Origin: Nitrosopumilus sp.
GTDB lineage: Archaea > Thermoproteota > Nitrososphaeria > Nitrososphaerales > Nitrosopumilaceae
NCBI GenBank assembly: GCA_965238275.1
Contig: OZ250186.1
Span: forward strand, 1,952,001-2,016,000
DNA length: 64,000 nucleotides
Direction of reading: 5' to 3'
A model generated the notes under the pieces. It made no database searches, had not been told where the DNA came from, and saw only the letters and a list, made by a program, of their open reading frames with translations. The position numbers and the translations under genes are program-made. Below, piece by piece: positions 870 to 45,688 of the stretch. Within the stretch, counting starts at the first letter, position 1. Each line of letters starts with the position of its first letter.

Positions 870-1068
870 GGCTCTGGAACTTTTAGTGATCTGATCACCA
901 AAATTTAACACCAAGGTTCAGATGCCGTTCATCTCACTTTTGAACAGACTTTTGGAATGCACCACACCTGAACACCATGATGAAATATAGTGAAATCAAA
1001 TCTGGAGAAGAACCAAAAACGCACTTTTGAACAGTAAACATTCGAGATCACCAAAATTTAACAGAGCC
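870..1068. mobile_element. non-autonomous IS6-like miniature element (MITE)
   Basis: Ends GGCTCTGGAACTTTTAGTGATC and GATCACCAAAATTTAACAGAGCC. 870-910 is the reverse complement of most of the 47-bp unit at 34442 and 35643. Internal 13-bp direct repeat CACTTTTGAACAG at 935 and 1022. No TSD. Confidence 0.75.
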
Positions 1069-26450: not shown

Positions 26451-26699
26451 GGTTCTCCTGCATCATCGGTTGGTGGCACAAATTCAGGATCTTCTCCAGA
26501 TTTACTTGCTGTTTTACGCACCGTTATGCCATTCCCCATTAAATCATAATTCCTCTAGGGAGAATCTGCCAGTTGTGATGGATAATCCCAGTCATTGCCA
26601 TGACATGCATTGATGGGACATCCATCACGCCAAGGCCAGTCTGGGCTACGTGTGTCGCTGCCGTTGCTACAGCTGCCGTTGCTACTGCTGCTGCTGCGA

Positions 26700-27846
26700 C
26701 TACGCTGCTGCTGCAGCAGCTGCTGCATTACTGATGAGGGTGATCTGCTTGTCCGTTCCAGATATGACGATCCCTGCGGCCTCTGCGGGTGTAATTTTGC
26801 CAATGCCGCCATGGGGGCGGAAAAAGTTGTGGTGGACGATCATCAGCCGCACAAGCGCGGGACTTTCTGTCCCGAACTCGCGGGCGGTCTTGATGCGATC
26901 CTTGAATTCACCGTTAAGCCTCTCGTGCTTGTTGTTATGACTGAAGCGGTTCTTCAGGTGAATCTCCCGGACGTGGATCAGCCTGAAGCCGTTGCGTCTC
27001 CAAAACGCCCTGCGGGCGGCAGGACAAAACGCCTGCAGGCCGTCTGTTACCAGCACCCACGGGGTGGTTCCGGCCAGATTCCTTGCGGCTGCAAACAGGG
27101 GGGCGGGTCTGTAGTTGAGTTTTGTCTCAGACACGTCATGGGACAGTATGAACCTGCTGGCGCCGTCCATGACGGCAAAAAGCCACCGCGCCTGCGCGCG
27201 AACCTTGAAATGTATCTCGTCACAGTGCCACTTGTAGCTCGTGCGCGGCTGCAGCCGCCTTGAATATTCATCCATCAGCGTCGAATAATGCGCAGTCCAC
27301 CTGTATATCGTGCTTGAATGCACGGTTGTTCCGTCCTGTGCCATCACTGCCTGCACCGCAGCGCAGGACAGCCCGTACGCTGCCTCCCTGAGTGCCCGGG
27401 ATATCGCCTCTGGGCCGGCATGGCGCTTCTTGAAGCCCGGCCGTCCGGAGAATGTCCGGCCGCACGGCTTACACCGGTACCGCCGGATCGGCCCGTACGC
27501 GTTGTGTCGGTGCCCGTTGCGTGCAAACACAGTCGACTTGCAATGGTGGCATGCAGTCTGAGGCATGCTAATGACAATTGTATTTTGGTTCCTGCACCGG
27601 TCCCACATCCGGCCAAGCAACACGTCCACTGCCCGCACGTGCTTGCACAGGCCGTCACAATTGACGTAATGCTGGCACGCGCATACAAACCCGGCAGAGC
27701 CAAGAATCACCAGATACCACAGTCCTGGAATAGACTGCGATGCCACATTCCATCGTCTGAGACTTGGTCATCCTCACCTGCTTTGGGTCGTCACTGATCA
27801 CCTGTCCCTGCCTTGCCGCCGTTTTGGCGCGTTTTGCCCTGTTCAT
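26700..27846 (-). pseudogene. IS6-family transposase with SWIM and Zn-ribbon domains, +1 frameshift near 27766
   Basis: One extra base relative to copy 2 splits the 381-aa ORF into the 63-aa and 348-aa ORFs. Confidence 0.85.
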
Positions 27847-27917
27847 AAATAAACCAATTGGTATTATTACATAGATCTTTCTACCAGTCTTAAATAACAG
27901 GCAGCTAAAAAAAATTC

Positions 27918-28094
27918 ATGACCCAGTGGGCCAAAGACGCCAAGGAATTTACCGTTTCTGTGATCAAAAACGAGAAGCGTCTGACAAACTACAGCTACAT
28001 ACCAAAACCGATACTTGAAATGCTTGGCAATCCCGACAAACTAAAGTTTGTCATTTCCGGCGATGACATAATGGTGCGCAGACCAGACGAGTGA
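27918..28094 (+). CDS. AbrB/SpoVT-like small protein inside IS6 copy 1
   Basis: 58 aa MTQWAKDAKEFTVSV...YIPKPILEMLGNPDKLKFVI. Confidence 0.7.
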   Translation: MTQWAKDAKEFTVSVIKNEKRLTNYSYIPKPILEMLGNPDKLKFVISGDDIMVRRPDE

Positions 28095-28204
28095 ATCTGG
28101 AGAAGATCCTGTGCCCGTTTTGTCTGGATTGTGTCACCAACCGATGATGCAGGAGAACCGGCCATTACTAAGGCATAAATAACGTTTTAAACGAAACTTA
28201 ACAC

Positions 28205-31996: not shown

Positions 31997-33028
31997 GTGC
32001 TAGACGACATAATACGCGACGGGGACAAGCTCCGCCATGCCACGCTGGCAGACGGGGAACAGTTCCGGTACATGCTGGAGCGGGCCAAGGTGTTTCTGAC
32101 GCATTCGGGCCAGATGCCGCTGTTCTGCGATAACGCATCCCGGGCCTCCGATCCCGGAAACCGGTGCAAGCTGTACCTGAGACACGCGCTGCTCATGGCG
32201 CTGATGCACAAAAAGGAAAACATCACGCAGGGAACGCTTGCCGCGTTCTTCGGGATAGACCAGTCCACCGTGTCCCGGTACTTTCCTGTGATGGACGCGA
32301 TGCTGGCAGGAATACTTCCGACGGCAGACAATATATCCGAGGAGGTAGCTGCTGCCCCGACCAGGGAAGATTTCAAGAAGATCGTGCCCGGATCGGATGG
32401 GGGCGAGATCTTCATAGACGGCACGCACTGCCCCATACAGCGCCCGTCCGTAAAGTCAGTCCGGCGCATGAAATACTCCGGCAAGAAGAAAAAGTTTACC
32501 AACAATACCAACGTGTACACCAACCGGAACGGGGTGGTGATCGGCATATCAAAAAGCACCGTCGGGTCAGTCGGCGACATCACGCTGCTCAAGGAACGCC
32601 CCATGCCGTTTGGAAAGTGGGAGAAGGCGATGCACGATCCGGACCTGCCAGAATCAGACAGGTGCCACCCATTCGTCGACCGCGGCTACCAGGGAATCGC
32701 AGACCACCTGCCCGGCACCACGCCGGAGATCCCGCACAAGAAGACCAGGGACACGCCGCTGACGCCGGAGCAAAAAAAGCACAACCACAGGATCAACTCC
32801 ACCCGGGTGTTGGTGGAGCACACGATAGGCAGGCTCAAGCGCTACGCGCGCCTCACCGACCCGTACGACGGCAACGCAGCCGGGTTCAACAGGGAGTTCA
32901 ACGTGATCACAGGGCTGGTAAACCTGAACCTTTTGTGGGACTGCATGGAAAAGGGCCCGCCACCACCGGGGCAGTGGAAGACGTCAGTAGACTGGGACAG
33001 GGCCTGCTCCCAAGCTCCGGTCAAGTAG
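31997..33028 (+). CDS. IS5-type (DDE_Tnp_4) transposase B, N-terminus damaged
   Basis: FIDGTHCPIQRP, YSGKKK, VDRGYQG, RVLVEHTIGRLK. Confidence 0.9.
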   Translation: MLDDIIRDGDKLRHATLADGEQFRYMLERAKVFLTHSGQMPLFCDNASRASDPGNRCKLYLRHALLMALMHKKENITQGTLAAFFGIDQSTVSRYFPVMDAMLAGILPTADNISEEVAAAPTREDFKKIVPGSDGGEIFIDGTHCPIQRPSVKSVRRMKYSGKKKKFTNNTNVYTNRNGVVIGISKSTVGSVGDITLLKERPMPFGKWEKAMHDPDLPESDRCHPFVDRGYQGIADHLPGTTPEIPHKKTRDTPLTPEQKKHNHRINSTRVLVEHTIGRLKRYARLTDPYDGNAAGFNREFNVITGLVNLNLLWDCMEKGPPPPGQWKTSVDWDRACSQAPVK

Positions 33029-34513
33029 AATTCAGGGCACGATGAAGTGCTGCAAGGCTGCGCACGTCATTTTGGATTTTGGGGTGAACGGACTTGCCAC
33101 ATGCCAGACACGAGTAGTTTTAGGCCGTATTTTTCCGGTTTTTTATGACCGAGTTGGCGAAATGGGCGGATTACGCATATCTTCTATTATGCGAAACCGT
33201 TTGACCCTGCGGATGGCGTGCTCCACATACACCCGTACCTTTGAGTGTTTTTTGTTGAATTCCTTCTGCTCGGGGGACAATTCTGCACCTTTTTGCTTCT
33301 TGTACGGCACTACGGCATCCCGGTCAGGAAACTCCTTGTTGATCCCCTGGTATCCGCCATCCAGGATCTCTCTGACCTTGATCCTTTTCTTGTCCTTGCT
33401 CCCGTCCTTGCGTGGAAGGTTGTCAGGGAATGTCGGGTGTTTCTTTTTGAATACTGCAAAGTCGTGGATCCTGCCCGGGGAATGCCGGGTCTTGTGAAGG
33501 ATGAGGCCGTCCGTGGCCGATGTGTACTGGACCTTGGACGTGTGCCTGTGTGCCTTGCCCGAGTAGTGGGACCGTTCCATGTCCTTGCGCCCGGGACGTT
33601 GTATCTGCTGCTCGGAGGCATCAATCAGGGCAGTCAGGCCCGGAATGATCTCCTCAAGATCGTCAAGCGTCTTGGTGGCCTTGATGCTGGCGTAGATCTT
33701 TGACGGAAGCGGAACGCACTGCCGGATCGACGGCTCCAGTGCCCCCATGCTGCGGGACACGCTAGCCTGGCCCACCTGAAACACCATGGCAAGAAGATCC
33801 TGTGTGGCGTATGTCCTGTAATAAAACAGGACCAGAAGAAACCTGTTTTTCAGATCCAGTTTCCACCTGCGTCCGGCACCAATGCCGCGCATCCTGCTTC
33901 TTTTGGAGAGTCGCTTTTGCTCTGCCCTGGGGTATTTTTTTGCCAGCCGCCCTGCCACCAAATTAAATTCGGAGACTGTCAGTCCAGTGCACCGGATGAA
34001 CAGTTTGGGCTTTTTTGCTAATTTGTCGTATAATGACATGCTTTGACATGGGCAATCAGAATAAAACACGGCTGACGTATAGTTTTGATCATCGGGTAAG
34101 TTCGAATTGACATGCAATTCCGTGCAATCAACCGGATTTGTCCTGCAATGCGTCCAATCGTGTGGTTATACCCAATTACGGATTATGTCTATGGAGTCCA
34201 GGGCGTGATAGTGCGCACGTACAATGACAGCGAGTCCTGCTTCGTCTCGCTTGCCGTCCACAAGTTGGGCGCCGAGGACATCACAAGTGCGGCCGCAATT
34301 AGCACGAATTTTAGTAACTGCATAGTTTTTTGATCAAATGTTGAACTCCATGCCTACGCGCGTCTATGCAGTTTTTTGACGTGGAGCCAGGCCCTCGTGC
34401 AGGATCGTGCCAAGATCATCTCCCCTTGCCTTGCATGTCTGGGACCTGTTAAATTTTGGTAATCAGATCAGTAAAAGTTACCAGAGCCGCCAGCCAAGCG
34501 CCAACGTGGTGTT

Positions 34514-35240
34514 TTATTGCACGTTGCGCGCGACATGCAGTCCGCATTCTTTGACGCCACGTTCCCACCACCAACGGCCCGCGCGCGGATCTTCGCCGGG
34601 TTTCACAGCCCTAGTACATGGTTCGCATCCTATGCTTGTGTAACCCCTGTCCAACAACGCGTTGTACGGCACGCCGTGCGCCCTGACGTAGCCCCAAACG
34701 TCTTCAATACTCCAGTTTATTATCGGATTTATCTTCACTATCCCGCCGTGCGCCGAATCCAATTCGAACATTTCCATGTCGCGCCTGGCTTCGGTCTGAT
34801 CGCGCCGCAAGCCGGTGATCCACCCGTTGAGCGTGGCCAGTTTGGCATTCATCGGTTCGACTTTGCGGACATGGCAGCACGTTTTGCGTCCCTCGACGCT
34901 TTCGTAAAACAGGTGCGTGCCGCGCTCTTCGACCATGTGTTCGACGCGTTCGGGATCCGGTTTGAGCCTTTCGACTTTGATTCCATACCTGTCTTCCACG
35001 GCCGCGATTATGTCCAGTGTCTCTTTCGGCAGAAAACCTGTGTCTAGCGTGAAGAATTGGAATTCGGGGGTGATTTTCACCATCATGTCGATTACTGCCG
35101 CGTCTTCGGCGCCGAAGCTTGACGCCTTGCCGACTGACGGACAAAGGTTGTCAGACGCCCACCTGAGCGCTCCTTCGGCGGTAGTTATTTCAGAATTCAA
35201 CAGCCGCACGTCGTCTGCGGTAAGCCGTTTACGTGCCCAT
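34514..35240 (-). CDS. cysH: APS/PAPS reductase (Fe-S type); start codon one base out of frame
   Basis: SSFGAED, TLDTG, CCHVRK, WITGLRRDQ, SIGCEPCT, RAGRW, KECGLH. Confidence 0.9.
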
Positions 35241-35489
35241 TCGCTCTTCAATTTTTTCAAGCTCCTTAGTACATTCAGTGCTGTCGCTTTCCAAGGCTGA
35301 AATTTGTTCATCGTAGTTTTCAATATCATTTTTAAATTCTTTAATTTCGTTTTCGTCATTTGAATTGTCGATCCGATACTTTGTAGCTTTTCGAAGTTCG
35401 CGAAGCCTGTCTAATTCCCTATTGTTTGTTCTTATTCTTTCTTTAAATGCTTCTGCTGCACCTTCTGCACCGTAGTTTAATCCAGTCAT
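35229..35489 (-). CDS. AT-rich coiled-coil hypothetical protein (cargo)
   Basis: 86-aa charged helical ORF overlapping the cysH 5' end. Confidence 0.55.
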   Translation of the reverse strand: MTGLNYGAEGAAEAFKERIRTNNRELDRLRELRKATKYRIDNSNDENEIKEFKNDIENYDEQISALESDSTECTKELEKIEERMGT

Positions 35490-35689
35490 GGTTGCATCAG
35501 AATACAAATAACATTATAATAAAGGTACTGAAAAGTGGCGGCGTGTTGCATAATCCTGCCTGCCATGTTACAATGAGCAGCACCATACACCATCATCCAG
35601 ACCGAAAAAGCTAAAGATCATGAGAATCAAGGCATCCTAGTGTGACCTGTTAAATTTTGGTGATCAGATCAGTAAAAGTTACCAGAGCC

Positions 35690-37044
35690 CATGTCTGCTT
35701 GATGCTCATCAGCGTGGCAATGGCATCTGCGCCCTTCTTTGACCTGCTCCCGTTGCTGTTCTTGCGCAGGATGACGCACGGCCTGATGGCCCGCTCTGCC
35801 CGGTTGTTGTGGTATTCGACGCCGTCTGTCTCCAGAAACGCAAACAGGTGATCTCCCTCCCGCACCAGCCTCTTGCGCATCCTGTTGCAGTGCCTGCAGT
35901 CGCGGTCCTTTTCGAGCCTGCCGATAAGTGACGCGATGCGACGATCCAGCCTCTTCTTTGCTGCCAGTGCTTCGGCACCTCCCGGAACGGCGCCGTCGAT
36001 GTGCGAGTCCCACAGTATCGTGCGCAGCGTCCTTGCGTGACGCTTGTAGTCATCGCCGGGATTCTTGTATTTCAGGGTGTCCTTGATGTCCCGGGCGTAA
36101 TGAAGGTGGCACTTTTGGTGTTCGGATCCGATGACGTTCCACGCGGCCCACGAGTCAGACGTGACGCATCCCGGGTAGTCCTTGCCGAGCATCTTTTTTG
36201 GAACCTTCGAGTTCCTGTGGCGGTGCACCTCGTAGATTACGGCGTACCTGGCTACAGCCACCCACAGCCAATAGTTTGTGCCGTCGACGCGCCAGGTCGT
36301 CTCGTCCCCGTTTATCGCAGGCGAGTTTCTTACCTCCTCCCTGATCTTCTCGTACAGCGGCCCGAGCTCCCGGGCCATCCTGCACACCATGCGGTTTATC
36401 GCAGATTCCGTGATTCTTGCCGAGTACATCATCATGACAATATTGCATATTCTGAGGTCTGACATGCCGTGCAGCCTGAGGATGACCATCATTATCATAA
36501 AGTTGATCCCGTACCTGGAGTTTGGCAGTGCCAGCGGAGTCCTGCCGGACACGATCCTCTTGCAGTTCCTGCAACGCCTTCTCTTTACTGTCACCTTGAT
36601 GTGCTTTAGTTCCGTCTTGGCAGCCTCCCTTACCACCTTTGTGTACGTGGACACGCATTCTGAGAGGTCGGAGCTGCCGCAGTTGCCGCACGTGTGCGGA
36701 TCTGCTGTCTCCTCTGCGTCTATTCTTTCAGGACGCGCAAGGCCCGTGCGTTTGTGGTCACTTGGCTTGCCCTTGCCCTTGCCCTTGCCCTTTGCGCGGC
36801 GCCGGGTACTGCCGGTCTTTTTGTCCGGTTTTGCGCCGATGCTCCTTGCAACGGCAGCCGATATGATGCCCTTTGCCTCCTGCAACTCTACCGTGAGATC
36901 CTGGATCTGTTTGAGGGCGGCAGCGTAAAGATCAGCGAGTTTGGCCATCTGCCGGTCTTTTTCGGCCATCTGCTCTACCATCACACCCACTTTTTCCTCC
37001 AGTTCTGCAATCCTTGACTCGGAATTATCATCAGACATATGCAA
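35690..37044 (-). pseudogene. IS66 transposase 2 (last ~25 codons displaced to ~34362-34441)
   Basis: CGNC/CRNC, NGDETTW, TSDSW, QKCHLHYAR, HNNRAERAIR. Confidence 0.9.
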
Positions 37045-37266
37045 ACCGTGGGCAGCAATGATCTAAAAATTAGGACGGAGAGAAAAACTCGATCAAGTGA
37101 TTAAAAATAGTTTTAAAAAATTAGACAGACGCGGATTTTCTGATTGTAGATATGGAGTTCAACATTTGATCAAAAAACTACACAGATACGAATTTTATTA
37201 TATTTCACAGTACTCATGTATATAATAGATTTTTAACTGTCTATTGACTCATGAACATAAGTTAGC

Positions 37267-37965
37267 ATGGCTTTAATTTATGGAATTTCCGGTAGCGAAA
37301 GGGGGCTCTTGAACAAATATCCCAGTGCAGTGCAAAAAATTGAAGATATTGAGAAAGCCTACAATGACTTGAAAGAACATATGAAGGAAGAAGATAACGG
37401 GTTTTTCGGGCGCATCAGGAAATGGAGCAAGCAACAGCAGCTAAATAGGTTTGAAAAAAACAAAGGTGATCCGATGCACGCAGGCACCCGCGGTGAATTG
37501 CATGTCTTAAATGAGCTGTCCAAGTTACCTGACGATTATCACGTTTTGTGTGGACTTGATTTTGAATTGCCGCATTACGTGACTTACAACAATCGAAAAA
37601 ACCTAAAATCAGCACAGATGGATTTCGTGGTGGTTTCCAAAAGAGGAGTGGTCATAATCGAAGTCAAAAACTGGAGCGACCGATATTATGAACAGCATGA
37701 AGGCATCAGTCCACACGAGCAAGTGGACCGTGCGGGACTGGTGCTGTGGATTTCGCTAAAAGCATGGAGAAGCCCACAAAACCCTCCGGTTACAAAAATC
37801 TTGCTGCCGGTGCAAGAAAACATGGGATATGATCTAAATTTCAAGTTTGTTTTGGTAAGGCATTTGGCAAATATCAATTCATTCATTGTAAACCAAAGAG
37901 AATTGTTTTCAGAAAAAGAAACTCAAAGGGTCGTTGACAGGTTAAAAGATCATGTCACGCAATGA
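37267..37965 (+). CDS. NERD-domain nuclease-like protein
   Basis: GTRGE, QMDFVVV...GVVIIEVKNW, PHEQV. Confidence 0.85.
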   Translation: MALIYGISGSERGLLNKYPSAVQKIEDIEKAYNDLKEHMKEEDNGFFGRIRKWSKQQQLNRFEKNKGDPMHAGTRGELHVLNELSKLPDDYHVLCGLDFELPHYVTYNNRKNLKSAQMDFVVVSKRGVVIIEVKNWSDRYYEQHEGISPHEQVDRAGLVLWISLKAWRSPQNPPVTKILLPVQENMGYDLNFKFVLVRHLANINSFIVNQRELFSEKETQRVVDRLKDHVTQ

Positions 37966-38258
37966 TCAATCCGCGTGTTTGTAGACAGTCTTACCGGAAT
38001 TATCCTTCAGAGTATTTCCCCAAGACGCGCAGCCATTCCCCTGCAAGCCTGAATGTGCAGAATATTTCCCCCACCGTGAGAGTAATTTAAATGGGATTTT
38101 ACAGTTATTTTTACGACAAATCCAGTTTTTGTTCACGAATTTATTTTTCACTGCATATCGGATTCCATAATTTGGGACAGAGGTATTTTGGCGGCATGGC
38201 ATTGGCCGGAAGGTTGGCGGTAAGAAATTATTGCTACCGTCGGATTTATAAATAATTT

Positions 38259-43695: not shown

Positions 43696-43831
43696 GCATG
43701 ACATCAAACATTGCAGATTAAAAAGATTGATTTGCTCCAGCCGGCCACACAGCCTGCCGTGCAGATGACCGGACAATCCGGGTTCTCCTGCATCATCGGT
43801 TGGTGACACAAAATCAGGATCTTCTCCAGAT

Positions 43832-44008
43832 TCACTCGTCTGGTCTGCGCACCATTATGTCATCGCCGGAAATGACAAACTTTAGTTTGTCGGGATTGCC
43901 AAGCATTTCAAGTATCGGTTTTGGTATGTAGCTGTAGTTTGTCAGACGCTTCTCGTTTTTGATCACAGAAACGGTAAATTCCTTGGCGTCTTTGGCCCAC
44001 TGGGTCAT
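43832..44008 (-). CDS. AbrB/SpoVT-like small protein inside IS6 copy 2
   Basis: Same 58-aa ORF as 27918-28094, divergent from the transposase. Confidence 0.7.
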   Translation of the reverse strand: MTQWAKDAKEFTVSVIKNEKRLTNYSYIPKPILEMLGNPDKLKFVISGDDIMVRRPDE

Positions 44009-44079
44009 GAATTTTTTTTAGCTGCCTGTTATTTAAGACTGGTAGAAAGATCTATGTAATAATACCAATTGGTTTATTT

Positions 44080-45225
44080 ATGAACAGGGCAAAACGCGCC
44101 AAAACGGCGGCAAGGCAGGGACAGGTGATCAGCAACGACCCAAAGCAGGTGAGGATGACAAGTCTCAGACGATGGAATGTGGCATCGCAGTCTATTCCAG
44201 GACTGTGGTATCTGGTGATTCTTGGCTCTGCCGGGTTTGTATGCGCGTGCCAGCATTACGTCAATTGTGACGGCCTGTGCAAGCACGTGCGGGCAGTGGA
44301 CGTGTTGCTTGGCCGGATGTGGGACCGGTGCAGGAACCAAAATACAATTGTCATTAGCATGCCTCAGACTGCATGCCACCATTGCAAGTCGACTGTGTTT
44401 GCACGCAACGGGCACCGACACAACGCGTACGGGCCGATCCGGCGGTACCGGTGTAAGCCGTGCGGCCGGACATTCTCCGGACGGCCGGGCTTCAAGAAGC
44501 GCCATGCCGGCCCAGAGGCGATATCCCGGGCACTCAGGGAGGCAGCGTACGGGCTGTCCTGCGCTGCGGTGCAGGCAGTGATGGCACAGGACGGAACAAC
44601 CGTGCATTCAAGCACGATATACAGGTGGACTGCGCATTATTCGACGCTGATGGATGAATATTCAAGGCGGCTGCAGCCGCGCACGGGCTACAAGTGGCAC
44701 TGTGACGAGATACATTTCAAGGTTCGCGCGCAGGCGCGGTGGCTTTTTGCCGTCATGGACGGCGCCAGCAGGTTCATACTGTCCCATGACGTGTCTGAGA
44801 CAAAACTCAACTACAGACCCGCCCCCCTGTTTGCAGCCGCAAGGAATCTGGCCGGAACCACCCCGTGGGTGCTGGTAACAGACGGCCTGCAGGCGTTTTG
44901 TCCTGCCGCCCGCAGGGCGTTTTGGAGACGCAACGGCTTCAGGCTGATCCACGTCCGGGAGATTCACCTGAAGAACCGCTTCAGTCATAACAACAAGCAC
45001 GAGAGGCTTAACGGTGAATTCAAGGATCGCATCAAGACCGCCCGCGAGTTCGGGACAGAAAGTCCCGCGCTTGTGCGGCTGATGATCGTCCACCACAACT
45101 TTTTCCGCCCCCATGGCGGCATTGGCAAAATTACACCCGCAGAGGCCGCAGGGATCGTCATATCTGGAACGGACAAGCAGATCACCCTCATCAGTAATGC
45201 AGCAGCTGCTGCAGCAGCAGCGTAG
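44080..45225 (+). CDS. IS6-family DDE transposase with SWIM and Zn-ribbon domains
   Basis: CACx9CKH, CHHC/CKPC, WHCDE, VTDGL, NNKHERLN. Confidence 0.9.
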   Translation: MNRAKRAKTAARQGQVISNDPKQVRMTSLRRWNVASQSIPGLWYLVILGSAGFVCACQHYVNCDGLCKHVRAVDVLLGRMWDRCRNQNTIVISMPQTACHHCKSTVFARNGHRHNAYGPIRRYRCKPCGRTFSGRPGFKKRHAGPEAISRALREAAYGLSCAAVQAVMAQDGTTVHSSTIYRWTAHYSTLMDEYSRRLQPRTGYKWHCDEIHFKVRAQARWLFAVMDGASRFILSHDVSETKLNYRPAPLFAAARNLAGTTPWVLVTDGLQAFCPAARRAFWRRNGFRLIHVREIHLKNRFSHNNKHERLNGEFKDRIKTAREFGTESPALVRLMIVHHNFFRPHGGIGKITPAEAAGIVISGTDKQITLISNAAAAAAAA

Positions 45226-45688
45226 TCGCAGCAGCAGCAGTAGCAACGGCAGCTGTAGCAACGGCAGCGACACACGTAGCCCAGACTGGCCTTGGCGTGA
45301 TGGATGTCCCATCAATGCATGTCATGGCAATGACTGGGATTATCCATCACAACTGGCAGATTCTCCCTAGAGGAATTATGATTTAATGGGGAATGGCATA
45401 ACGGTGCGTAAAACAGCAAGTAAATCTGGAGAAGATCCTGAATTTGTGCCACCAACCGATGATGCAGGAGAACCGACAATCCGTATAACTTATAGCATTT
45501 GATGTGAATATGGATACAATGACATACGACGGCAAGCCCGGTTTACCGGCGGTCTGGATAGCAGGGATTCAGATGATCCCCCTGCAAGTCGCGGATGGGA
45601 TGTGCAATGATGCAGCGGCAGCAGCAGCAGCGGCAGCAGCAGCGGCCAAGGCAGGTCCTGCCGGCGGCAGCAGACCAGGTGGGCGCGT

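Follow-up and report, generated by a model that had tools for sequence, protein, structure and literature searches.

How did a sulfur-assimilation gene, encoding a CysH-type reductase, come to lie inside the transposase gene of an insertion sequence, between two copies of the same 47-bp repeat, in a genome of the ammonia-oxidising archaeon Nitrosopumilus? We addressed this question in a 64,000-nucleotide stretch of DNA (the window; contig OZ250186.1, positions 1,952,001 to 2,016,000). Positions are those of the window unless they are given as genome positions.

Structure of the cysH unit

The locus consists of a 1248-bp block, made up of two 47-mers and the cargo between them, with one copy of an 8-bp sequence on either side:

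34434 to 34441: 8-bp target-site duplication CATGTCTG, left copy; eight uninterrupted IS66 copies have this 8-mer once, at the corresponding position
34442 to 34488, plus strand: 47-bp element, copy 1, with both tips (GG...CC) intact and arms complementary at 16 of 23 positions
34489 to 35642: cargo, 1154 bp, GC 0.50 (genome 0.527)
35643 to 35689, plus strand: 47-bp element, copy 2, with an inner tip of TG, not GG
35690 to 35697: CATGTCTG again, the right copy of the duplication and an exact match to the left one

The two 47-mers lie on the same strand and are identical at 45 of 47 positions, the changes from copy 1 to copy 2 being G to T at position 1 (the inner tip of copy 2) and A to G at position 21; a shuffled sequence used as a control for the repeat gave 0 matches. 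Each 47-mer is an imperfect palindrome in which two 23-nt arms, complementary at 16 of 23 positions, surround one central base, and the outer arms of the unit begin GGACCTGTT... and GGCTCTGGT.... The duplication is exact at 8 bp and fails when extended to 9 bp, and no duplication flanks either 47-mer individually. A reading of this DNA made from the sequence alone (the sequence-only reading) had described two direct 47-bp copies with two differences, one of them at the inner terminal G, inside a perfect 8-bp target-site duplication, and the comparisons bear this out. It had also described the element as a palindrome of two 23-nt arms around one base; the layout stood, but the arms pair only imperfectly.

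The unit interrupts an IS66-family element

The duplicated 8-mer lies in the following element:

34311 to 37192, minus strand: IS66-family element that received the unit, about 1626 bp long once the insert is subtracted, with inverted ends at 34311 to 34357 and 37146 to 37192
35650 to 37044, minus strand: interrupted IS66-family transposase ORF, cut near its C-terminus (PF03050, 2.4e-36; NF033517, 222.5 bits, cut-off 180)

The typing of this ORF agrees with the earlier proposal that the unit splits an IS66 transposase. In the eight uninterrupted IS66 copies of the genome, CATGTCTG is single and is followed by the same right flank. When the unit and one copy of the duplication were removed in silico, the resulting sequence matched other IS66 copies at 98.4% over 1407 bp, with no gap across the junction. 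Because the eight uninterrupted copies have the 8-mer only once, the block was inserted as one piece: a single event placed all of it in the IS66-family transposase gene at an 8-bp staggered cut.

Public sequence data back the junctions on which the sequence-only reading depended. Contigs of four public runs, from four studies, cover the left junction, each starting at 34412, 30 bases into the IS66 flank, and one contig (depth 2) spans 34412 to 35719, bridging both junctions. A direct joint of 34433 to 35690 was present in all four runs; it was considered as a product of excision and is read instead as the uninterrupted IS66 paralogues.

Cargo genes and their origin

The cargo contains the following features:

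34514 to 35359, minus strand: APS/PAPS reductase (CysH-type) gene (PF01507, 1.3e-47; NF002537, 267.7 bits; TIGR02055, 253.2 bits, cut-off 235.3)
35229 to 35507, minus strand: coiled-coil ORF of 92 aa, on the cysH strand and upstream of that gene, with only weak coiled-coil-type matches
35546 to 35634: segment of 89 bp that matches genome 1277068 to 1277156 at 93% identity, the matching DNA lying directly upstream of a gene for 547 aa

The interval given for cysH is the longest ORF, and the real start is probably further downstream; a 271-aa protein identical to the cargo cysH product is on record as P0001. Profile scans gave no family assignment for the 92-aa ORF, of which run X1 contains a strain variant with an in-frame 9-bp deletion at 35456. 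Profile matches and the ORF list agree on the cargo as it had been proposed, 1154 bp with cysH and a coiled-coil ORF, and the unit is, as also proposed, without a transposase gene: neither of its two credible ORFs (a CysH-type reductase and a coiled-coil protein) is one, and its other ORFs are alternative-frame overlaps. A recombinase gene was not found inside the unit either.

The cargo CysH is 62% identical to the product of the resident cysH gene, which adjoins sat (genome 658203 to 658979). A CysH tree was built from the resident copy and 45 of the 120 listed matches (46 proteins, the other 75 matches being omitted). It separates two clades: one, which has full support and consists of 10 unnamed proteins, contains the cargo protein, and the larger one contains the resident copy and every named Nitrosopumilus, Nitrosopumilaceae and Cenarchaeum protein of the tree. 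Among the listed relatives, the nine closest to the cargo protein are P0002 to P0010. The protein relatives that have names are Nitrosopumilaceae, and by this measure the host is an archaeon, as the sequence-only reading had supposed. The 1154-bp cargo has no second full copy in the genome, a comparison with 40 relatives gave no DNA that closely matches the unit, and no arms lie near a 53-aa fragment in genome G017. At both of its loci the 89-bp segment points the same way with respect to the gene downstream of it. In runs X3 and X4 the cargo contigs continue through this shared segment into sequence of the 1277-kb locus, which we take to be a repeat-induced path.

The 47-mer family and other duplication-flanked units

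The 2.2-Mb Nitrosopumilaceae genome contains 15 47-mers, together with related elements of about 68, 120 and 200 bp. The 47-mers are short, non-coding, multi-copy and bounded by terminal inverted repeats, and their arms pair at 16 to 21 of 23 positions. Throughout the family the arm tips read GGCTCTGKT or GGCACTGTT. They open with GG, have G at position 7 and contain CTGTT or CTGGT; the 'caaa' motif of IS6 ends occurs only in the c. 120-bp relatives. Among 80 other genomes of the genus, 8 contain the arm pattern, and further Nitrosopumilus MAG loci also contain 47-mers; a search for the exact 43-nt pattern of the 47-mer in genome and metagenome contig collections found nothing. The 47-mer is thus a real family, with 15 copies here and others in Nitrosopumilus genomes. 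Its 47-bp layout is the same in all 15 copies and in copies from other species, and these are therefore not independent deletion products. This contradicts the possibility, raised in the sequence-only reading against its own proposal, that the units are independent deletion relics of full-length insertion sequences.

Matching 8-bp flanks were found at seven of the 156 arm pairs within 40 kb (six exact, one at 7/8), compared with 0.06 expected, and the 5995 arm pairs of the whole genome gave the same six exact units and one trivial case, compared with 0.09 expected. The insertion sites of the seven units have no common sequence. Crossed duplications between distant arms, which would be a sign of inversions or large composites, were not found beyond the local units. 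For unit c1 (genome 285667 to 288299), gene capture was considered, but a better explanation is a small element into which a 1446-bp insertion sequence and an IS110-like piece have inserted.

The type of unit seen at cysH recurs in the genome with other cargo. Gene mobilisation by 47-mer pairs had been proposed from the cysH unit, and the list of pairs, cargo and duplications now includes two additional 47-mer pairs around other cargo, with duplications of 8/8 and 7/8. One pair flanks a HEPN protein and a nucleotidyltransferase (duplication GCCGGACT), and the cargo of the third 47-mer pair consists of small AT-rich ORFs; the genes on either side of the latter unit are presumably cbiD-like and cbiG-like. 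Two of the three 47-mer pairs are clearly direct, matching at 45/47 and 44/47 positions on the same strand versus 32 and 35 on the opposite strand, and the remaining pair is only weakly direct (36 versus 32). In both young units the flanking copies are each other's closest relatives, all other between-copy comparisons reaching at most 41/47. Two composites with c. 200-bp boundaries (genome 1948325 to 1953068 and 1948532 to 1951945) are in inverted orientation and have exact duplications; the first starts before the window and ends within it:

870 to 1068, plus strand: c. 200-bp relative of the 47-mer, right boundary of the duplication-flanked composite at genome 1948325 to 1953068 (duplication TGATTTGG)

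Solo elements behave differently from these pairs. Of the 23 examined (nine 47-mers and 14 relatives), none has a duplication, and at their exact boundaries 0 to 4 of 8 positions match, as in random DNA. This lack is at odds with an actively transposing miniature family, which would normally show duplications.

Search for a helper transposase

The genome contains no transposase gene bounded by GGCTCTGKTAAATT arms and no repeat of at least 600 bp that starts or ends at such an arm. Scans with PF13610 and NF033587, and tblastn with a 381-aa protein, revealed only one IS6-like family in the genome, which scores below the NCBIfam cut-off (84-86 bits versus 125) and is represented in the window by two copies:

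26451 to 28159: second copy of the IS6-like element
43781 to 45474, plus strand: IS6-like element, 1694 bp, encoding a transposase of 381 aa whose N-terminal part is zinc-binding, and with a 9-bp duplication, GACAATCCG

A 17-nt subterminal motif is common to this element and the c. 200-bp and c. 120-bp relatives (39 matches versus 0 reversed) and is absent from the 47-mer. The ends of the element begin GGTTCTCCTGCA..., and 9-bp duplications were present in three of its four full copies. It is unlikely to be the helper, since its ends differ from the arms and its duplications are 9 bp and not 8 bp.

Models of ISL3 and IS1595 detected no transposase in the genome. Boundary mapping of 12 repeat families gave no element with these ends; the IS66 elements of this genome make 8-bp duplications, but their ends are GTAA. 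Of 43 listed multi-copy ORF families with at least three members, 20 were selected and typed with NCBIfam; they gave IS5, IS66, IS481, IS630 and TnpB types, and seven families had no match. The 13 loci at arm matches in G006, G017, G069 and G087 contained short elements only, and arms of this kind were absent from the borders of the IS6-like genes in these four genomes and in G092, boundaries being definable for the G017 element only. An IS6 transposase with matching ends, which the sequence-only reading had expected, was thus not found in the genome or in the relatives' loci examined. The IS6-type character that it had assigned to the ends themselves is well founded: the arm tips match the marks described for IS6/IS26, namely GG tips, G at position 7 and a cTGTt motif (PMC7986276, PMC6807381).

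Discussion

We consider the 1248-bp block likely to be a composite transposon, non-autonomous and with a miniature element at each end; it would be a small-scale counterpart of the gene-moving composites of bacteria. A DDE-type transposase acting in trans would recognise the two outermost arms and move all the DNA between them. The arm tips, together with the 8-bp duplication, indicate an IS6-type enzyme; the helper would be such an enzyme other than that of the resident IS6-like element, and may have been lost or have gone unrecognised. Points against this reading are that the searches gave no helper, that the 23 solo elements show no duplication and that the two flanking copies are not identical. 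The route may have been that of a classical composite, in which both outer ends are used at once, or an IS26-like copying-in of a circle carrying one 47-mer and the cargo, which is a possible route for the cysH unit.

The circle can also be taken as an explanation in its own right, in which about 1201 bp of circular DNA (a solo 47-mer and adjacent DNA) were copied into IS66 by a replicative IS6-type transposase that duplicated the 47-mer. We regard this as rather unlikely, although several features of the family fit it. All three 47-mer pairs are direct, two clearly and one weakly; the mutual closeness of the flanking copies in the young units is what would be expected after replication of one copy; and the tips are IS6-type and the duplication is 8 bp. 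The absence of duplications at all nine solo 47-mers fits copy-in elements that mostly make adjacent deletions, and it also fits the rare resolution of short repeats by homologous recombination. However, the composites with c. 200-bp boundaries are inverted and yet exactly duplicated, which is disallowed by the rule for IS6 pseudo-compound transposons as given in PMC7986276. An IS6 transposase with these ends was not found, and the resident IS6-like element duplicates 9 bp. The copies of a pair, which on this route would start out identical, differ at two positions here and at three in the second unit, and the back-joint of the circle was not among the joints listed for the four public runs, whose contigs cannot show rare forms.

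A related proposal, which we think unlikely, is that the 47-bp elements are too short to pair their own ends and spread only within circles copied in by a replicative IS6-type enzyme. Circle-only spread would jointly explain the direct pairs of sister copies, the solos without duplications, and the shuffling of metabolic and toxin-antitoxin genes. If true, it would constitute a natural minimal translocatable-unit system in archaea, in a thaumarchaeal host genome that is symbiont-like and ridden with insertion sequences.

The palindromes might instead be sites of site-specific recombination (integron attC-like, or hairpins of the IS200/IS605/REP type), with the cargo as a cassette. Arms that pair imperfectly at 16 to 21 of 23 positions, solo copies without duplications and the many TnpB genes of the genome would suit such sites. 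Nevertheless, an exact 8-bp duplication that is single in the empty sites and recurs in seven units is the mark of DDE-type staggered cleavage, the insertion sites have no common sequence, an Rfam scan of 33000 to 38000 matched no family, and the unit has no recombinase gene; we consider this explanation very improbable. That cysH is resident and was flanked by chance, by two independent solo insertions or by deletion relics of full-length insertion sequences, is scarcely credible: solo 47-mers are common (nine in the genome) and the two copies are not identical, but the gene lies inside IS66, eight sister copies are without the block and have a single 8-mer, neither 47-mer has its own duplication, and the 47-bp layout is shared by 15 of 15 copies and by those of other species.

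The nearest experimental counterpart of the composite transposon that we favour is the TIME-COMPs of Pseudomonas, which are described as units, bounded by two Tn3-derived miniature elements, that transpose in trans (PMC4133298). According to the same source, TIMEs are 262 bp long, belong to the Tn3 family and make 5-bp duplications, and their mobility was followed with trap plasmids. In both cases a pair of miniature elements without a transposase surrounds unrelated genes, and one target duplication surrounds the whole; here the eight uninterrupted IS66 copies represent the empty target site. The flanking copies of TIME-COMPs, as described there, may differ by about one base, and both orientations occur. 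The flanking 47-mers of the cysH unit differ at 2 of 47 positions, which we counted against the composite reading. Unlike the TIMEs in that description, the elements here are 47 bp without a core, with an 8-bp duplication, IS6-like tips and an archaeal host; and movement of the whole unit in trans was shown for TIME-COMPs, whereas for the cysH unit we infer it from structure.

The 8-bp duplication, the tip motifs and the direct flanking copies around passenger genes are shared with the pseudo-compound transposons of IS26/IS6, as these are described. In the published accounts IS26 is about 800 bp and has its own transposase (PMC7986276, PMC6807381), and ISfinder is said to hold two IS6-derived miniature elements, of 227 and 336 bp (PMC7986276). 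Unlike IS26, the 47-mers have no matching transposase, the related composites are inverted, and the resident IS6-like element duplicates 9 bp. Because it encodes no IS6-type DDE transposase, the cysH unit is at best a derivative of IS6/IS26 and not a member. Many copies of IS26/IS6 elements are without a duplication of their own, as are the 47-mers. Mobile insertion cassettes, such as MIC231 of Bacillus cereus, carry passenger genes flanked by ends that a transposase recognises and acts on in trans; they have one inverted repeat per end, whereas here each boundary is a complete two-armed element. In Acinetobacter, 439-bp miniature elements flank class 1 integrons (PMC3934969; reviewed in PMC10969869), and the likeness, as far as described there, lies in identical miniature elements at both ends of a gene segment and in evidence for insertion as a unit. 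The Acinetobacter elements differ in their bacterial host, in being roughly ten times as long and in having resistance integrons as cargo, whereas here the passenger is a metabolic gene and the host a thaumarchaeon.

In bacteria, the capture of genes between two miniature elements is already established, mostly for resistance genes. The novelty claimed in the sequence-only reading therefore stands in part: the literature search found no description for archaea, for Thaumarchaeota or for IS6-like ends of such size, but mobilisation of genes by miniature pairs is described in bacterial work (PMC4133298, PMC3934969).

The contrast between the seven pairs with duplications and the solos without them (0/23) is a testable clue to the chemistry of transposition, and the 47-mer units could serve as a natural test case for IS26-type copy-in with minimal ends. 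For annotation, they are a warning that a metabolic gene inside an insertion sequence may be a passenger. For the archaeon itself, elements that consist of two 23-nt arms appear to relocate host genes, among them a divergent second APS/PAPS reductase and a HEPN/nucleotidyltransferase pair.

Results

The cysH unit is a single insertion with a target duplication

Two copies of a 47-bp miniature element, the 47-mer, lie in direct orientation:

window 34442-34488, 47-mer copy 1 (left), same strand as copy 2
window 35643-35689, 47-mer copy 2 (right), same strand as copy 1

The copies differ at positions 1 and 21, and 100 shuffles of the window gave no match to the 47-mer. Each is built of two 23-nt arms with one base between them, the layout described by the sequence-only reading; the inverted arms, however, are complementary at only 16 of 23 positions, so the palindrome is imperfect. 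Between the copies lie 1154 bp with two genes, both on the minus strand, and the earlier description of direct 47-mers with two differences around cysH and a coiled-coil ORF was confirmed at window 34442-35689.

The 8-mer CATGTCTG abuts copy 1 on the left and is repeated immediately to the right of copy 2; lengthening this repeat to 9 bp fails, and neither 47-mer of the unit has a duplication of its own. The flanks on both sides belong to one IS66-family element with inverted ends at 34311-34357 and 37146-37192, whose transposase ORF (35650-37044) matched PF03050 (2.4e-36) and NF033517 (222.5 bits, cut-off 180). When the unit and one copy of the 8-mer were deleted in silico, the junction aligned without gaps to other IS66 copies, for example at 98.4% over 1407 bp. 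In eight uninterrupted IS66 copies CATGTCTG is single and is followed by an identical right-hand flank, which bears out the perfect 8-bp duplication and the split IS66 transposase claimed earlier. Because the empty-site alignment is gapless, the 8-mer is single in the empty copies and neither 47-mer has its own duplication, the 1248-bp block is a single-piece insertion with an 8-bp target duplication.

Public data include four runs, each from a different study, with contigs that reach across the left junction and begin 30 bases into the IS66 flank; one of the four runs is possibly the source of the assembly. A single contig of depth 2 covers 34412-35719 and bridges both junctions. A 'skip' joint, 34433>35690, is present in 4/4 runs; we rejected it as evidence of excision, since the uninterrupted IS66 paralogues would yield the same joint. 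In one run (X1), the unit has the same left junction but differs by a 9-bp in-frame deletion at window 35456 in the coiled-coil ORF and by 9 substitutions, so that a diverged strain carries the same insertion.

The IS66 element has two IS5-type (DDE_Tnp_4) transposase genes as its immediate upstream neighbours and a NERD-domain gene as its immediate downstream neighbour (window 31997-34117 and 37267-37965). The surroundings of the element are a patchwork of mobile elements.

The cargo includes a second, divergent CysH

The CysH-type reductase of the unit, the passenger, matched PF01507 (1.3e-47) and NF002537 (267.7 bits), and exceeded the cut-off of TIGR02055, the thioredoxin-dependent APS-reductase model (253.2 against 235.3 bits). 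The 92-aa ORF upstream of it gave only weak matches, of coiled-coil type. With these two genes as its cargo the unit has no transposase gene, as the sequence-only reading had stated.

A resident cysH elsewhere in the genome adjoins, by inspection of the translation, an ATP-sulfurylase gene. A tree of 46 CysH proteins puts the two apart: the passenger belongs to a separate clade of ten unnamed metagenomic proteins that has full support, and the resident copy groups, in the larger remaining clade, with all named Nitrosopumilus, Nitrosopumilaceae and Cenarchaeum proteins of the tree. Given this separate clade and an identity of 62% between the two proteins, we read the passenger as a second, divergent paralogue or xenologue, not the resident gene relocated. 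A search of 40 relatives for the unit's DNA gave no close copy, and an exact pattern search of two large contig collections (genome_contigs and metagenome_contigs) gave none either.

An 89-bp piece beside copy 2 and upstream of the passenger operon (window 35546-35634) is 93% identical to genome 1277068-1277156, the upstream region of an unrelated 547-aa repeat-protein gene. Its orientation relative to the downstream gene is the same at both loci, which may share it as a segment that bears a promoter. Within this segment, contigs of two runs jump between the unit and the 1277-kb locus.

The 47-mer belongs to a family in a repeat-rich genome

The window lies within a single 2.217-Mb contig (GC 52.7%), in which repeats of at least 400 bp total about 405 kb. 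The named relatives of the genome's CysH are Nitrosopumilaceae, Nitrosopumilus and Cenarchaeum, and judged by these the host is a thaumarchaeon. NCBIfam typing of multi-copy ORF families gave IS5, IS66, IS481, IS630 and TnpB types, with 7 of the 20 scanned lacking a match.

An arm-consensus scan of the genome (at most 5 mismatches) gave 84 arm matches and 15 complete 47-mers. The host IS66 element's closest sister copy lies with its end 13 bp away from the most symmetrical 47-mer (genome 1122936-1122982; 21/23 arm positions pair). The same type of tip, GGCTCTGKT or GGCACTGTT, is shared by relatives about 68, 120 and 200 bp long, and at its left end the c.200-bp element forms a 47-mer-like hairpin with a degenerate inner tip. 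Of 80 other genomes of the genus, 8 have the arm pattern, and the hairpin core was found in 14 loci of a species-representative collection, mostly in MAGs of Nitrosopumilus or Cenarchaeum and in several cases within complete 47-mers; the further copies that the earlier reading called for thus exist within and beyond this genome. Four loci with the core (L069, L070, L074, L079) are on contigs labelled Candidatus Poribacteria, 'bacterium' or Cloacimonetes, which may reflect misbinning or cross-domain spread. One solo 47-mer has identical 8-nt flanks in two different Nitrosopumilus MAG records (L068 5218-5264; L073 6239-6285), which points to an old, inherited copy.

No 8-bp duplication was found at any of 23 solo elements (0/9 solo 47-mers and 0/14 longer relatives). 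Examples are genome 1064432-1064633, 1474646-1474765 and 1094594-1094661.

Duplications recur at paired elements

We paired each outward-facing arm with each opposite arm within 40 kb. The outer 8-bp flanks matched in 7 of these 156 pairs (6 exactly, 1 at 7/8), against 0.06 expected, and the arms of the seven are 0.95-4.8 kb apart. With 0.09 expected, an all-against-all comparison of 5995 arm pairs returned the same six exact units and, trivially, one pair of elements that abut. Three units, including the cysH unit, are bounded by 47-mers; two composites are bounded by c.200-bp elements and two units have other arm types.

genome 1110135-1113604, 47-mer-bounded, duplication GCCGGACT; HEPN protein, nucleotidyltransferase and a later IS5-type insertion
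genome 672574-673524, 47-mer-bounded, duplication GTAGTGT[T/C]; small AT-rich ORFs (GC 0.37)
genome 1948325-1953068, c.200-bp-bounded composite, inverted orientation, duplication-flanked
genome 1948532-1951945, c.200-bp-bounded composite, inverted orientation, duplication-flanked
genome 285667-288299, other arm type, exact duplication TCCATGGC

The first follows closely downstream of a gene that inspection suggests is ribonucleotide-reductase-like and that appears to contain an intein, and the genes either side of the second are presumably cbiD-like and cbiG-like. The inverted composites are nested one in the other just before and at the window start (genome 1948114-1953068; window up to 1068). 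Inspection of their translations identified an ABC-transporter ATPase and a membrane protein as cargo, which further includes an IS5-type insertion. They are inserted in the tail of a further element copy. The unit at 285667-288299 contains a 1446-bp insertion sequence (with two more 100% identical copies) and an IS110-like piece, and a small arm-bounded element into which these have inserted explains it better than gene capture does.

The ends are IS6-like and the only IS6-like transposase family has other ends

Published passages on IS6-family ends describe a G dinucleotide tip, a G at position 7 and a cTGTt motif (PMC7986276, PMC6807381), and one of them gives a duplication length of 8 bp (PMC7986276). 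Because the arm tips of the 47-mer family fit this description and the duplication has this length, we call the ends IS6-like, by which we mean resemblance, not membership. The IS6-like reading stood as to tips and duplication; no enzyme with these ends was found. A single IS6-like transposase family is present in the genome, as five copies that match without interruption and as fragments:

window 43781-45474 and 26451-28159, IS6-like element, 1694 bp, ends GGTTCTCCTGCA...

Its 381-aa protein has a zinc-binding N-terminal extension and matched the IS6 model NF033587 over the full length at 84-86 bits, against a cut-off of 125. The element makes 9-bp, not 8-bp, duplications in 3 of 4 full copies, and a relative in genome G017 also has a 9-bp duplication. 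The matching transposase that had been proposed was not recovered. No IS6 enzyme with an 8-bp signature and no ISL3 or IS1595 transposase is present in the genome, and no repeat of at least 600 bp starts or ends at an arm genome-wide. No full-length element with these arms was found at loci around arm matches and IS6-like genes in five relatives. The IS66 elements make 8-bp duplications, but their ends are GTAA.

A 17-nt motif, GGATCTTCTCCAGATTC, has 39 matches when at most 2 mismatches are allowed, and 0 when it is reversed. It is subterminal in the IS6-like element and interior in the c.200-bp and c.120-bp elements (e.g. genome 1995817, 1064563), and the 47-mer lacks it. This shared motif suggests a common ancestry of the IS6-like element with the c.200-bp and c.120-bp elements. 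An IS6-like element of genome G017 has a near-identical sequence at its extreme tip.

Discussion

A site that occurs once in empty copies and is exactly duplicated over 8 bp around the insert bears the signature of DDE-type staggered cleavage and joining. A DDE-type transposase would have acted on the outermost arms of the unit, and would have done so in trans because the unit encodes none. We consider it probable that the unit is a composite transposon bounded by miniature elements and moved in this way.

The sequence-only reading had proposed a specific IS26-like route with a circle of one 47-mer plus cargo, which we regard as doubtful. All three 47-mer pairs are direct, as that route would have it, and the flanking copies of the two young units are mutual closest relatives in the genome (45/47 and 44/47; other comparisons of different copies at most 41/47), as expected if insertion replicated one copy. 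The lack of duplications at solo 47-mers and their longer relatives would be odd for cut-and-paste miniature elements; copy-in elements whose main product is adjacent deletions would be expected to show it. Against this, the inverted, duplication-flanked c.200-bp composites indicate that joint use of two outer ends is possible in the superfamily, the flanking 47-mers are non-identical, the genome has no IS6 enzyme with the 8-bp signature, and no circle was seen among assembled contigs, the only material searched. For the composite transposon, the copies of the two young pairs show 5 differences in all, of which 3 affect the terminal dinucleotide of an inner tip (GG>TG in the cysH unit, GG>AT in the second), a pattern that fits, suggestively only, inactivation of inner ends that holds the composite together.

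Taken together, the earlier observation is confirmed and its interpretation partly supported. Duplications at pairs and never at solo copies, with no helper transposase found in our searches, are a real puzzle.

Among open-access full texts we found no report of gene units bounded by miniature elements in archaea, of IS6-like TIR-only elements of such size, or of miniature elements as the basis of a translocatable unit; a term search of a survey of thaumarchaeal mobile elements returned neither MITE nor composite transposon. The IS6-derived miniature elements in ISfinder number two and measure 227 and 336 bp (PMC7986276). Paired mobilisation was inferred for 439-bp elements flanking integrons, according to PMC3934969 and a review (PMC10969869), and that pairs of Tn3-derived miniature elements, the TIME-COMPs, mobilise the DNA between them is experimentally established (PMC4133298). 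As described there, TIME-COMPs have 262-bp boundary elements, 5-bp duplications and both orientations, whereas the cysH unit, the probable composite transposon of this thaumarchaeon, has 47-bp boundaries in direct orientation and an 8-bp duplication.
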